Origin: Candidatus Poribacteria bacterium
GTDB lineage: Bacteria > Poribacteria > WGA-4E > PCPOR2b
NCBI GenBank assembly: GCA_965208325.1
Contig: OZ242326.1
Location: 4,000,001-4,064,000 of the forward strand
DNA length: 64,000 nucleotides
Direction of reading: 5' to 3'
Shown here piece after piece: positions 14,360-45,848 of this stretch. The translations under genes and the position numbers were made by a program. Every line of letters starts with the position of its first letter. The first letter of the stretch is position 1. Under the pieces are notes generated by a model. It worked only from the letters and a program-made list of their open reading frames with translations. It did not search any database and was not told where the DNA came from.

Positions 14360-15671
14360 GCTTGATTGCGCGGTTGCGGTGTATGGAAAGTGTGATTGCA
14401 CAAGAGATTACGGCACACGGAGTGTGCCTACTACTTTATCGCGGCTGAAAGCCGCTCCCACAGTGGAGGGTAATTTGGAGGGTGGAAGGAAAGGGTTGCG
14501 ATTCTCGACGATACGGTCTGAACTGTGATTCGTGTGATTAAATGAATGGCTGTGATTAAGGGAGCGCGCAAACAGTCGGAAGTTGATGGTGTTGCGGAAG
14601 GTTACAAAAGCGTTGGGTTTCGCTACGCGTGAAATTTCACCAAGCATCTTTTGAAATTTGGAGCGGTAACTTGCTGCCGGCGCGGATTTGGATTGATCCG
14701 CTCTACCCAACCTACAAGAGCTTGATTGCGCGGTTGCGGCGTGTGGAAAGTGTGATTTCACAAAAGATTACGGCACACGGAGTGTGCCTACTACTTTATC
14801 GCGGCTGAAAGCCGCTGCCACAGGGGAGGGTAATTTGGGGGGTGGAAGGAAAGGGTTGCAATTCTCGACGATACGGTCTGAACTGTGATGCGTGTGATTA
14901 AATGATTGGCTGTGATTAAGGGAGCGCGCAATCAGTCGGAAGTTGATGGTTTTGCGGAAGGTTACAAAAGCGTTGGGTTTGGCTACGTCGTATCAATTTT
15001 AAACTGCCTCCACCCGTGAAAATCATACGCACAATGTTGCATTTCTGGCGGTAAGAACTATCGCCCTCCCTATTCGGTCGGTTGATCGCTCTACCCAACC
15101 TACAAGAGCTTGATTGCGCGGTTGCGGTGTATGGAAAGTGTGATTGCACAAGAGATTACGGCACACGGAGTGTGCCTACTACTTTATCGCGGCTGAAAGC
15201 CGCTGCCACAGGGGAGGGTAATTTGAAGGGTGGAAGGAATGGGTTGCGATTCTCTACGGTACGGTCTGAACTGTGATTCGTGTGATTAAATGATTGGCTG
15301 TGATTAACGGAGCGCGCAATCAGCCGGAAGTTGATGGTGTTGCGGAAGGTTACAAAAGCGTTGGGTTTCGCTACGTCGTATCAATTTTAAACTGCCTCCA
15401 CCCGTGAAAATCATACGCACAATGTTGCATTTCTGGCGGTAAGAACTATCGCCCTCCCTATTCGGTCGGTTGATCGCTCTACCCAACCTACAAGAGCTTG
15501 ATTGCGCGGTTGCGGTGTATGGAAAGTGTGATTGCACAAGAGATTACGGCACACGGAGTGTGCCTACTACTTTATCGCGGCTGAAAGCCGCTCCCACAGT
15601 GGAGGGTAATTTGGAGGGTGGAAGGAAAGGGTTGCGATTCTCGACGATACGATCTGAACTGTGATTCGTGT
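14360..15671. repeat. tandem array 1: 3 full units (360, 388, 388 bp) plus a partial unit, built from REP-like hairpins
   Basis: CTTGATTGCGCGG recurs at 14361, 14721, 15109 and 15497. Read on the minus strand, units carry GTAGTAGGCACACTCCGTGTGCC and TGTGGG/CAGCGGCTTTCAGCCGCG; the full units also carry GTAGGTTGGGTAGAGCG...AAACCCAACG. Confidence 0.95.
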
Positions 15672-15698
15672 AAATTTGAAATCCAAAATGGATCTTAA

Positions 15699-17186
15699 TT
15701 GGAGGTGGAAAAGATGTGTTTTAGTTATGAACCCCGCAAATTCAGGCGAGGACGAGAAATATTGGTTGTAATTTCTGTCATCTTTTGGTTAGTAACAACC
15801 TTTAACTCAGAGAGTTTGGCAGCACACAATTGGACAGAGCAGATTGCAGCTTTCAAGCCGATGGTTGTGAACGTGGAAACGTCATCGGAAGTTGTATTTG
15901 AAGCGGAATCGAAGGGTACGAACTTTGCCACGGGTTTCATCGTTGATGCGGCGCGCGGGATTATCGCGACTAACCGGCATGTCACCGGCAGCAGCCCATC
16001 CTACGTGAAAATCAACTTTTTCGACGGAAGTTTTACAGAAGCGGAGATTCTCTACTATGATCCGACCCACGATTTCGGGTTTTACCGAATCGATTCGGAA
16101 GAGGTACAGTTTGAGTTGCAGGCCGTGAAAACTAACTCGTGGCGCAGCCTAGCTTTGGGCGATGAATTGCTATTGATTGGGAACAACGAGAAGGAAGAAT
16201 ATTCAATCAAGTTTGGCAGAGTTGCAAATCTTAACGTCAACAAAGGCGATCGGCACTCAAGCTACATCCACGCGACGTTTGACCGCACGGGCGGAGCTAG
16301 CGGGAGTCCTGTCTGGAACACCAAAGGAGAGGTCATTGCCATCCATGCGCGCGGAACAGACACTTCAAGTTTTGAGCTGCCAATGGACTATTTGACCGAT
16401 GCCCTAACGAAAATCCAAAATCAGATTCCAATCCAACGCGGGGAAATCGGTGTGGATTTAGAACTTATCTCCATTGGTGAGGCGATTAAGCATTTCAGAC
16501 TGCCGGAGTCTTCGCGTGAAGAAATTGGACCATCAGAGACAGGGACACCTAAAGTCATTCAGATTGAATCAATTATTCCTCGAACAACCGGAGAGATGCA
16601 TTTACGGGCTTCGGATATTGTATATCGAATCAATGGAAAACTCATCCGTGATGAGCTATATACATTCGACGCTATTTTGAATGAGAGTGTGGGGCGGTCG
16701 GTGATGCTAGACATCTATCGTAACGGGGCGGCGATGTCGGTTGAGATGCCGGTCGAAGACCTCGAGTTGAAGAAAATTCGCCGGTTTGTCCGCTTTGCAG
16801 GTTCGATTGTTCACGATATTACACCTAGCCTGAGACGGATGCTCTACTTTGAAGCCGATGGTGTTTACTTGACACATGCGGTTGCGGGCAGCAGTTTTTC
16901 GCGCATCGGACTGCGCGAGCGCAATGGTAATTCAAAAGTGGTGATTTTGGAAATCAACGGGCGGCCAATTCGAGTATTGGACGACTTCATAGATGCCTGC
17001 AAGGAGATTTCGGATGGGCAACACACGTACATGGTCATCCGTGATTTCAATTTGTTTGACAGTTCACCGACTCCCAAGAGTGTGACCGTAAACCTGAAGT
17101 TCGGTCCGCTGCAGGTGTTCTTATGGAATGAGCAAATGCTTGACTGGGAAGAGGCGGGAATTGAAAACGAAACAGCGGCGCAATGA
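15699..17186 (+). CDS. trypsin-like (S1C) serine protease with PDZ-like domains, Nma111/Deg7-like
   Basis: Signal peptide. ATGFIVD, TNRHV (His), DPTHDFG (Asp), GGASGSPV (Ser), and C-terminal PDZ-like segments. Confidence 0.88.
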   Translation: MEVEKMCFSYEPRKFRRGREILVVISVIFWLVTTFNSESLAAHNWTEQIAAFKPMVVNVETSSEVVFEAESKGTNFATGFIVDAARGIIATNRHVTGSSPSYVKINFFDGSFTEAEILYYDPTHDFGFYRIDSEEVQFELQAVKTNSWRSLALGDELLLIGNNEKEEYSIKFGRVANLNVNKGDRHSSYIHATFDRTGGASGSPVWNTKGEVIAIHARGTDTSSFELPMDYLTDALTKIQNQIPIQRGEIGVDLELISIGEAIKHFRLPESSREEIGPSETGTPKVIQIESIIPRTTGEMHLRASDIVYRINGKLIRDELYTFDAILNESVGRSVMLDIYRNGAAMSVEMPVEDLELKKIRRFVRFAGSIVHDITPSLRRMLYFEADGVYLTHAVAGSSFSRIGLRERNGNSKVVILEINGRPIRVLDDFIDACKEISDGQHTYMVIRDFNLFDSSPTPKSVTVNLKFGPLQVFLWNEQMLDWEEAGIENETAAQ

Positions 17187-44097: not shown

Positions 44098-44214
44098 TAA
44101 TCTTGTCCTCCTTCGCACACGAAACGCGTCAGATTTACTACTGCTGAAATTGTACCACATAGTCGACCTTAGCACCAACCCATCGCGAGATGAATATTGC
44201 ATAAGCCAATGGAT

Positions 44215-45848
44215 AAGAACTGTGATATTTTTGATTAAATGATGGGCTATGATTAAATTGAGTCATTTGGGTACATATATACACAAGGCGTGAATGAAAA
44301 TCGAGGCTGGGAAGCCTCTCCCACAGACCGATGAGCCAATGAATGATTTCTGATAATCGAGCTTGATGGGGTTGCGTGAGGTTACAAAAGCGTTGGGTTT
44401 CGCGCCGTGTGTATTTACCATAGCATCATTAGAAATTCTGAACGTCGATTGCAGCCTGAACCGTTTTGGGATTATCCGCTCTACCCAACCTACAAGAACT
44501 GTGATTGAATGATGGGTTATGAATTATTTGAGTCAATTGGGTACATTTATACACAAGGCGTGAATGAAAATCGAGGCTGGGAAGCCTCTCCCACAGCGCA
44601 ATGAGCCAATGAATGATTTCTGATAATCGAGCTTGATGGGGTTGCGTGAGGTTACAAAAGCGTTGGGTTTCGCGCCGTGTGTATTTACCATAGCATCATT
44701 AGAAATTCTGAACGTCGATTGCAGCCTGAACCGTTTTGGGATTATCCGCTCTACCCAACCTACAAGAACTGTGATTGAATGATGGGTTATGAATTATTTG
44801 AGTCAATTGGGTACATTTATACACAAGGCGTGAATGAAAATCGAGGCTGGGAAGCCTCTCCCACAGCGCAATGAGCCAATGAATGATTTCTGATAATCGA
44901 GCTTGATGGGGTTGCGTGAGGTTACAAAAGCGTTGGGTTTCGCGCCGTGTGTATTTACCATAGCATCATTAGAAATTCTGAACGTCGATTGCAGCCTGAA
45001 CCGTTTTGGGATTATCCGCTCTACCCAACCTACAAGAACTGTGATTGAATGATGGGTTATGAATTATTTGAGTCATTTGGGTACATTTATACACAAGGCG
45101 TGAATGAAAATCGAGGCTGGGAAGCCTCTCCCACAGACCGGTGAGTCTATGGATGATTTCTGATAATCGAGGTCGATAGGGTTGCGTGAGGTTACAAAAG
45201 CGTTGGGTTTCGCTCCGCGTGTATTTACCATAGCATCATTAGAAATTCTGAACGTCGATTGCAGCCTGAACCGTTTTGGGATTATCCGCTCTACCCAACC
45301 TACAAGAACTGTGATTGAATGATGGGTTATGAATGATTTGAGTCAATTGGGTACATATATACACAAGGCGTGAATGAAAATCGAGGCTGGGAAGCCTCTC
45401 CCACAGCGCAATGAGCCAATGAATGATTTCTGATAATCGAGCTTGATGGGGTTGCGTGAGGTTACAAAAGCGTTGGGTTTCGCGCCGTGTGTATTTACCA
45501 TAGCATCATTAGAAATTCTGAACGTCGATTGCAGCCTGAACCGTTTTGGGATTATCCGCTCTACCCAACCTACAAGAACTGAGTTTGAATGACGGGTTAT
45601 GAATGATTTGAGTCATTTGGGTACATATATACACAAGGAGTGATTGCAAATTGAGGCTGGGAAGCCTCTCCCACAGACCGGTGAGTCTATGGATGATTTC
45701 TGATAATCGAGGTCGATAGGGTTGCGTGAGGCTACAAAAGCGTTGGGTTTCGCTCCGCGTGTATTTACAATAGTATTATTAGGAATTCGGTACGTAAATT
45801 GCAGCCTGAACCGTTTTGGAAGTATCCGCTCTAAACAACCTACAAGCA
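44215..45848. repeat. tandem array 2: six 270-bp units built from REP-like hairpins
   Basis: ACACAAGG recurs at 44281, 44551, 44821, 45091, 45361 and 45631. Each unit has GAGGCTGGGAAGCCTCTCCCACA and CGTTGGGTTTCGC-N72-CCGCTCTACCCAACCTACA (degenerate in the last unit). Confidence 0.97.

Follow-up and report, generated by a model that had tools for sequence, protein, structure and literature searches.

A GTAG-type repetitive extragenic palindrome with a long, unstructured loop of near-constant length in Candidatus Poribacteria

A 64,000-nt stretch of the Candidatus Poribacteria bacterium genome (the window; C1:4000001-4064000 of the 4.71-Mb single-contig genome G000) contains 11 copies of a repetitive extragenic palindromic (REP) element. 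The element is a GTAG-footed REP hairpin in which the tip loop of 2-8 bases is replaced by an unstructured loop of ~70-76 bases. Its loops form a continuum of old subfamilies that does not support the capture of cargo, and the unit exchanged between related genomes is the whole element or a doublet of elements, not a loop between fixed arms. It is likely that a group-2 REP-associated tyrosine transposase (RAYT) copies and exchanges this GTAG REP with a long loop in the form of whole units; the loop length is probably selected. The first-pass annotation of the window had proposed a non-autonomous, RAYT-linked element, distinct from CRISPR and from integron attC sites, that captures or shuffles cargo between constant arms. 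The RAYT link and the distinctness are borne out below; the capture of cargo is not.

Architecture and loop sequences of the element

On the functional strand, the GTAG foot is followed by a 7-base arm, three unpaired bases, GC and the long loop; beyond the loop, GC and three unpaired bases lead into the 7-base arm that complements the first. The arms had been placed correctly by the annotation but read on the non-functional strand, the GTAG foot being on the opposite one. The stem comprises a 7-bp lower stem, a 3x3 internal loop and a 2-bp upper stem, with a median modelled stem probability of 0.95. Each foot position is conserved in 96-99% of copies, and the foot is present at one end only, CTAC being located 3´ of the right arm in just 6/230 copies. 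The flanks carry a conserved T/CT-rich stretch on the 5´ side and GCTTTT on the 3´ side; C|T is the cut site of the Escherichia coli enzyme (PMC3333891). The one-end GTAG, the imperfect stem with a conserved internal mismatch, the high copy number and the extragenic location are all traits of GTAG REPs. The long copies exceed the size typical of these repeats (20-40 nt with a short loop), and the element is therefore a variant rather than a typical member.

Covariation was observed across the loop. Among copies from other genomes (n = 387), the upper arm pair is G-C in 287 and A-T in 81, and the lower pair is T-A in 373 and C-G in 7. The A-T switch in the upper pair may reflect a few events inherited by many copies. 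In this genome, two internal-loop positions change jointly in 16 of 25 independent pairs. The covariation of the arms indicates that they pair within one strand.

All 11 arm pairs were recovered in the window, and the exact arm-gap-arm pattern has 149 matches in the genome compared with none for the reversed control. A mismatch-tolerant census detected 263 arm pairs within 220 nt, of which 217 measure 99-104 nt (124 exactly 102 nt) and 19 are short, ordinary REPs of 31-35 nt; the remaining 27 have other lengths and are mostly module-bearing copies, pairings that span a doublet or chance pairings. None of the 230 long copies lies inside an open reading frame of at least 200 aa. Neighbouring copies are arranged head-to-head in 32 cases, head-to-tail in 56 and tail-to-tail in 12, with gaps of 29-376 nt between doublet partners. 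Labelled runs that contain DNA of the window are mainly sponge metagenomes.

The loops are diverse and connected. Ungapped identity among the loops of 102-mers has a median of 37%, compared with 25% after shuffling, and is distributed as a continuum. The 198 distinct loops form 111 clusters at 80% identity, far from two or three fixed subfamilies, and at 55% one cluster takes in 193. This lower linkage sits at the edge of the null distribution (99.9th percentile 55.6%), so the deepest links rest on a shared profile and not on single pairs. The identity to the nearest neighbour has a median of 0.82 and falls below 0.57 in only 9/198 loops. Three unrelated loop types had been described in the window. 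The diverged versions of type I stand (66-85% identical among themselves). Type III is 39-57% identical to type I, near chance for a single pair, but joins it via intermediates at identities of at least 55%, and all loops share the positional profile. Type II is not a third class; it consists of a ~30-nt module and a 73-nt loop.

No mosaic of two subfamilies was detected among the 76 loops that have close relatives for both halves. When the elements were masked, 38/215 loops matched elsewhere in the genome. Of the match sites, 68 have no arm close by; nearly all of these correspond to the ~30-nt module, and only three are short, weak matches of ordinary loops. Searches with three of the window's loop types against 50,697 phage and 72,556 plasmid records yielded no match, and the element pattern was absent from viral contigs. 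Folding of 80 sampled loops, as RNA or DNA and on both strands, showed no excess over shuffled sequences (mean z -0.12 to 0.22). No covarying helix was detected within the loops of 66 representatives. A derivation of the loop from decayed right-arm copies was not accepted; the best position gives 5.3/12 matches, compared with about 4 elsewhere. The dinucleotides CT and AG are depleted in the loops of this genome (0.51 and 0.58 vs 0.81 in the background). This depletion is confined to this genome, and its reading as avoidance of cleavage sites was rejected as general evidence.

The ~30-nt module has 281 matches genome-wide compared with none for the reversed control. It is shared by several repeat families and also found at a number of junctions; copies of ~30-35 nt lie within several unrelated REP families, immediately 3´ of right arms, and next to one another in tandem. 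It is also found in other Poribacteria (L084). These results agree with the earlier suggestions that the type II tail recurs in another repeat family, at the sites in Table 1 and partially near 14350, and that modules are exchanged between families. Within the type II loop, the distal 59 nt (14985-15043 and 15373-15431) matched nothing else in the genome (best E 0.15) and nothing in the collected loci or the phage records.

Comparison with the sister genome G002 covered 48 regions, leaving aside 35 clusters that were unanchored or non-syntenic. In 31 orthologous pairs, picked at an identity of at least 80%, which biases loop divergence downward, divergence is 3.7% in the arms and 10.0% in the loops, compared with 16.9% at fourfold sites and 8.2% in other intergenic DNA. 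Loop divergence lies below that of fourfold sites, which indicates that the loops drift without hypermutation. C/T and A/G changes are about equal (61 and 59), and hypermutation by a diversity-generating retroelement was rejected.

Syntenic G002 sites carry 75 copies, and their counterparts here hold the same loop in 34 cases, no element in 22, a different loop in 14 and only a copy on the opposite strand in five. At the doublet site of the window (36921-37279), this genome, G002 and G003 each carry a different doublet, and close copies of the window doublet (82-90% identity) are located at non-orthologous sites of G002 and G003. Array 1 is wholly missing at the orthologous G002 site, and array 2 is a single unit there. 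Exchange at orthologous sites, as had been proposed, thus occurs; what changes hands is the entire unit and not cargo between fixed arms. None of 213 copies has a distant paralogue at 95% identity or above (seven do at 90% or above). On this basis, recent long-range transposition in this genome was rejected. Recent change here looks like local tandem amplification.

Loop length, the RAYT partner and candidate rulers

The length of the loop is held across the phylum. In 151 genomes, exact matches number 3,555 at 96-106 nt (98 genomes), 63 at 57-87 nt, 33 at 109-139 nt and 19 at 36-56 nt, in a scan that took in 36-87, 96-106 and 109-139 nt and left out 88-95 and 107-108 nt. A length constraint, the presence of which the annotation had suggested checking, is thus evident within this genome and beyond it. 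The loop tree totals 50.8 substitutions per site, about 2 from root to tip, and is near saturation. Neutral indel simulations at 0.08 indels per substitution (the intergenic rate) and 0.044 (the loop's own rate) gave standard deviations of 1.8-4.1 nt compared with 0.88 nt observed, which was matched in 0/300 runs in each of four settings. The loop length is therefore probably under selection.

Among the matches listed in a species-genome scan of at least 80 loci, most named records that carry the element pattern are Poribacteria; 59/60 Poribacteria matches have 99-105 nt, as do 28/31 from other taxa, the other three being tandem short REPs. Desulfatibacillum has 15 long (97-100 nt) and 32 short exact matches. 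Its loops do not align to 352 loops of the Poribacteria group (23.1 vs 23.4 when shuffled). The length mode differs between lineages (98 vs 102 nt). In the Desulfobacterales genome G041, many of the 335 copies form 128-nt interleaved doublets (e.g. L093, L134, L147), where one core is common to a pair of long-loop REPs, each 102-103 nt, that read from opposite strands. Other Desulfobacterales have copies that enclose an entire inverted REP in their loop and measure 104-105 nt. The long-loop form is patchy in this order (4/201 sampled genomes).

Loop autocorrelation was observed at 17-19 and 35-37 nt in this genome and other Poribacteria and weakly at 34-37 nt in Desulfatibacillum, with z values that are inflated by sequence relatedness. 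Among 32 shorter variants, 21 measure 64-67 or 82-86 nt, corresponding to deletions of 36 and 18 nt; this set was obtained by removing 13 tandem artefacts and six module copies and collapsing families, and its length windows were set post hoc.

A cognate enzyme was identified in relatives of this genome. G001 and G003 encode a third type of Y1 protein amid clusters of long-loop REPs. This RAYT belongs to NF047646 (201.6 bits, cut-off 80) and is a homologue of E. coli TnpA-REP (PDB 4ER8; E 3.9e-40), which supports the proposed link of a non-autonomous element to a RAYT. At E 1e-40 or better, 30 of the 151 genomes match this RAYT, this genome not being among them. Copies of 96-106 nt flank 18 of 26 close RAYT loci (G001, G003 and 16 other Poribacteria loci), and copies of 29-33 nt with the same stem flank the other eight; the Desulfatibacillum enzyme is also flanked by long copies. 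On a RAYT tree from which 3/43 loci that gave no protein were left out, one change separates long- and short-flanked enzymes (support 84/81). Grouping the 18 long-flanked RAYTs with that of Desulfatibacillum is weakly rejected (approximately unbiased test, p-AU 0.039); the long loop may therefore be the ancestral state or have evolved on two occasions. Residue 82 of the G001 enzyme (P0001) aligns with Lys82 of E. coli TnpA-REP, which contacts the bulge; it is Ser in 17/19 long-flanked RAYTs and variable in the eight short-flanked ones, which have more basic residues at positions 24, 98 and 157. A metagenome scan detected 11 distant RAYT loci, none with long loops; one of them (L210) has the same stem at 32-33 nt.

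In this genome, two Y1 genes score above the Pfam cut-off and one below it, and none is embedded in long-loop repeats (L001, L002, L003). The matching RAYT has probably been lost here, which would leave the copies of this genome as orphans; REPs that persist after the loss of their RAYT have been described for other bacteria (PMC3686654; bioRxiv 10.1101/2021.07.10.451892). The L001 locus (1330-1980; G000 C1:1954441-1957773) encodes an intact RAYT (NF047646, 129.6 bits) flanked by a 23-nt GTAG REP family with more than 200 copies in the genome, the lengths of which (23, 63 and 103) suggest 40-nt tandem units. The second Y1/RAYT-like gene (L002:94-2917; G000 C1:3320444-3323779) is flanked by an A/T-rich palindromic repeat that is also present in the window at about 14255-14290 and 41340-41375. 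On either side of it are a Cas6-like gene and a gene that resembles one for a WYL-domain regulator.

By analogy with the E. coli system, the group-2 RAYT (TnpA-REP) is predicted to recognise the folded base of the stem alone, on single-stranded DNA, to cut at nearby C|T sites and to proceed to strand transfer and rejoining; binding, cleavage and rejoining of single-stranded REP by the E. coli enzyme have been reported in vitro (PMC3333891, PMC8266576). Elements and doublets would be copied, stacked and replaced as whole units. The sequence of the loop would be ignored and its length gauged. A free loop sequence combined with a fixed length in thousands of copies implies a copying step or host interaction that measures DNA.

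The preferred candidate for this ruler, possible but not probable, is a tetramer of the host's SSB, the protein that binds single-stranded DNA, wrapping the loop in its ~65-nt mode. The wrapped loop would bring the two arms together, and the stem would fold on SSB-coated DNA; the ends of dT68 are brought close in the (SSB)65 mode (PMC4872115). The absence of loop structure, the 17-19 and 36-37-nt periodicity and the clustering of deletions at 18 and 36 nt are consistent with this proposal; a typical SSB gene is present in the genome, as expected, and carries little weight. Several features weigh against the SSB ruler. A minimum for wrapping leaves the sharp upper edge of the length distribution unexplained, the periodicity could be a relic of an old tandem duplication, and the loops are A-rich. 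Neither a clear replichore bias (124 vs 106 copies, on a noisy, irregular GC-skew curve) nor a clear sense bias (31 vs 29) of the copies was detected. The cumulative GC skew of G000 shows several reversals instead of two arms, and the strand of the element tracks chromosome blocks. The broader proposal, that a REP loop was tuned twice independently, in Poribacteria and Desulfobacterales, to one wrapped SSB tetramer that closes the hairpin for the RAYT, is rather doubtful. If it holds, SSB would close the hairpin base for one RAYT lineage instead of melting it, and two states of a REP would be allowed, one of about 30 nt without SSB and one of about 100 nt with one SSB.

A number of results count against length selection and RAYT-driven copying in general. 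The simulations are not rejected at an indel rate of 0.01, or of 0.02 with 1-nt indels, and the observed standard deviation comes from a set picked as 99-104 nt, outside which only about five clear deletion derivatives fall. A weak positional signal in the Desulfatibacillum loops (z about 5 at some of 18 shifts) leaves room for deep homology. A matching RAYT was found neither in this genome nor in G002. Support for separating long- from short-flanked enzymes on the RAYT tree is not strong, and related enzymes share labels. Five genomes with short-flanked RAYTs still carry 5-36 long copies. The best RAYT of G041 is not flanked by its 335 long copies, no flanked RAYT being found there with the RAYT query used. 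The CT/AG depletion does not extend to the loops of other Poribacteria and Desulfatibacillum, which argues against it as a general trait.

Among the alternatives, an ordinary set of old REP subfamilies, in which one ancestral insertion of ~72 nt was inherited passively and kept its length as indels are rare, is unlikely, although it survives best. It would account for the positional profile shared in the genus, the weak profile similarity across Poribacteria (z 3.5-11.8) and the fit of the simulations at low indel rates, and the periodicity and the 18- and 36-nt deletions fit a tandem duplication followed by slippage. However, the loops are near saturation yet vary little in length, and loops of another phylum that are non-alignable or rebuilt also come to 97-105 nt. 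A copy with the ~30-nt module as its 5´ third still measures 104 nt and is retained in G002, and Desulfatibacillum has no copy at 57-86 or 108-138 nt between and beyond its short and long forms.

A double-stranded ruler, either an excised circle of ~105 bp (10 turns) or two protein sites kept in helical phase with a bending or nucleoid protein in between, and possibly useful to the host, is less probable still. The tolerance of about 2 nt either way suits helical phase, the element with its conserved CT-containing flanks measures about 106 nt in this genome, and single-stranded BIME (bacterial interspersed mosaic element) circles have been proposed as intermediates (PMC3333891). Against this, the lineage modes lie 4 nt apart, side peaks at +/-10.5 nt and a 10.5-nt (curvature) periodicity of the loops were not seen, the flanks differ between lineages, and the covariation of the arms points to pairing within a strand. 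The last possibility, that the arms capture or shuffle foreign cargo of fixed length as a spacer or guide store, is very improbable and largely refuted: the fixed length with very diverse interiors, the type II distal 59 nt unmatched beyond its two copies, the pieces of other repeats in some Desulfobacterales loops and the capacity in principle of TnpA-REP to sequester flanking DNA (PMC3333891) would suit it, but the loops grade into one another and have close paralogues, none of the 76 tested is a mosaic, armless matches are nearly all the module, the phage, plasmid and viral searches gave nothing for the loops tested, and orthologous loops persist between species at 90% identity.

Copies in the window

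The copies of the long-loop REP and of the module in the window are given in Table 1. Array 1 is flanked by genes for a gamma-glutamyltranspeptidase and a trypsin/PDZ protease and mixes the long-loop REP with two other short REP-like palindromes. Each unit of array 2 comprises one long-loop REP and a second short palindrome. The oldest unit is orthologous to the single G002 copy, with loops that are 89% identical. The units of both arrays repeat the same non-coding DNA, and no cassette genes lie between copies. Further short palindromes of the GTAG/GTGG type at 14410-14470 and 44305-44325 recur in every array unit and make the arrays multi-family mosaics.

A run from a second study spans 35800-38500 in one contig with three differences, so the doublet is not an assembly artefact. 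Contigs over the doublet contain no usable circle junction; the joints come from paralogous copies. An Rfam scan of the window gave no matches. The window also encodes a peptidase C25 protein of 2092 aa that has an FlgD-Ig tail (21620-27898) and a 1237-aa Ig-like/WD40 repeat protein (57034-60747).

Table 1. Positions of long-loop REPs, arrays and ~30-nt modules in the window.
Feature	Position	Strand	Remark
Array 1	14250..15672	.	~388-nt units, BIME-like tandem mosaic
Long-loop REP, type I	14612..14715	-	104 nt; GTAG foot at 14715, ~76-nt loop
Long-loop REP, type II	14972..15103	-	132 nt; left arm, ~30-nt module, 73-nt loop, right arm
~30-nt module	15059..15087	-	in type II loop
Long-loop REP, type II, second copy	15360..15491	-	132 nt
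~30-nt module	15447..15475	-	in second type II copy
Doublet	36921..37279	.	whole, ~358 nt; GTAG feet point outward
Long-loop REP	36928..37030	+	103 nt; first half of head-to-head doublet
Long-loop REP, type III	37170..37271	-	102 nt; second half of doublet
~30-nt module, degenerate	41149..41177	-	inside a different 23-nt GTAG REP family
Array 2	44200..45848	.	six 270-nt tandem units
Long-loop REP, array 2 unit 1	44392..44493	-	102 nt
Long-loop REP, array 2 unit 2	44662..44763	-	102 nt
Long-loop REP, array 2 unit 3	44932..45033	-	102 nt
Long-loop REP, array 2 unit 4	45202..45303	-	102 nt
Long-loop REP, array 2 unit 5	45472..45573	-	102 nt
Long-loop REP, oldest array 2 unit	45742..45843	-	102 nt; left arm mutated
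~30-nt module	48759..48787	-	inside the same 23-nt REP family as the 41149..41177 copy

Comparison with known systems

The closest known system is the E. coli REP/BIME repeats with their group-2 TnpA-REP, the REPtron (PDB 4ER8; PMC3333891, PMC8266576). The two share the GTAG foot, 7-bp stem, internal mismatch and short upper stem, a free loop sequence, intergenic location, hundreds of copies and tandem mosaics that change in copy number. A homologous RAYT gene flanked by the repeats is also shared, in relatives of this genome. REP/inverted-REP pairs with linkers and tandem mosaics that vary between strains are found here, as in BIMEs. In contrast to the E. coli repeats as published, the long-loop element measures ~102 nt instead of 29-37 nt, its ~70-76-nt loop is unstructured and of fixed length across genomes, and the RAYT is lost in this genome. 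The account of the E. coli system states that the loop sequence is not selected and that the spread of REPs is still poorly understood (PMC8266576).

The GTAG families 1-24 (Di Nocera et al. 2013, PMC3733652) likewise comprise GTAG-tagged stem-loops that occur as singles, head-to-head, tail-to-tail and head-to-tail dimers, and clusters. The longest loops given in the main account of that survey have 9-15 bp, or a paired inner region of up to 27 bp. Repeats of unusual loop length were discarded there, so long-loop REPs could not be found. REP doublets forming hairpins (REPINs) in Pseudomonas (Bertels and Rainey 2011, PMC3116915) resemble the element in their conserved ends, a spacer in which length counts for more than sequence, the link to a RAYT and inverted doublets, of which the 32 head-to-head pairs are examples here. 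Their spacer, as described, is bounded by two complete REPs and folds into a hairpin in which compensatory changes are seen. In this genome, however, the stretch of fixed length is inside one split REP and is structureless (loop fold z near 0), and the gaps within doublets vary in length; two complete inverted REPs around a spacer of fixed length were not found.

Integron attC sites (PMC5737091) are similar in being single-strand hairpins read at the base, with a variable apical sequence and folding shaped by SSB. The element differs from them, as far as that source describes the sites, in its lack of cassette genes and of an integron layout, its dispersed copies and its HUH/Y1 RAYT partner. 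Unlike the repeats of a CRISPR array, its arms are inverted halves, its copies are dispersed and its loops recur as paralogues with no phage or plasmid match for those tested. Unlike the targets of diversity-generating retroelements, its loops show no adenine-directed hypermutation. Long-loop REPs do not constitute a new immune or memory system.

In the literature searched, with most subscription journals and supplements outside its scope, no description of REPs with a fixed, unstructured loop of ~74 nt was found. REP, BIME and RAYT systems are well known; the new features are the fixed long loop, its recurrence across phyla with non-alignable loops, the split of RAYTs into long- and short-flanked enzymes and the ladder of 18-nt deletions. 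The loop of E. coli-type REPs has been thought nearly irrelevant, and an abundant class is overlooked by REP surveys that consider only short loops. The RAYT of the cultured type strain Desulfatibacillum alkenivorans DSM 16219 is accompanied by both short and long forms, which makes direct testing possible.

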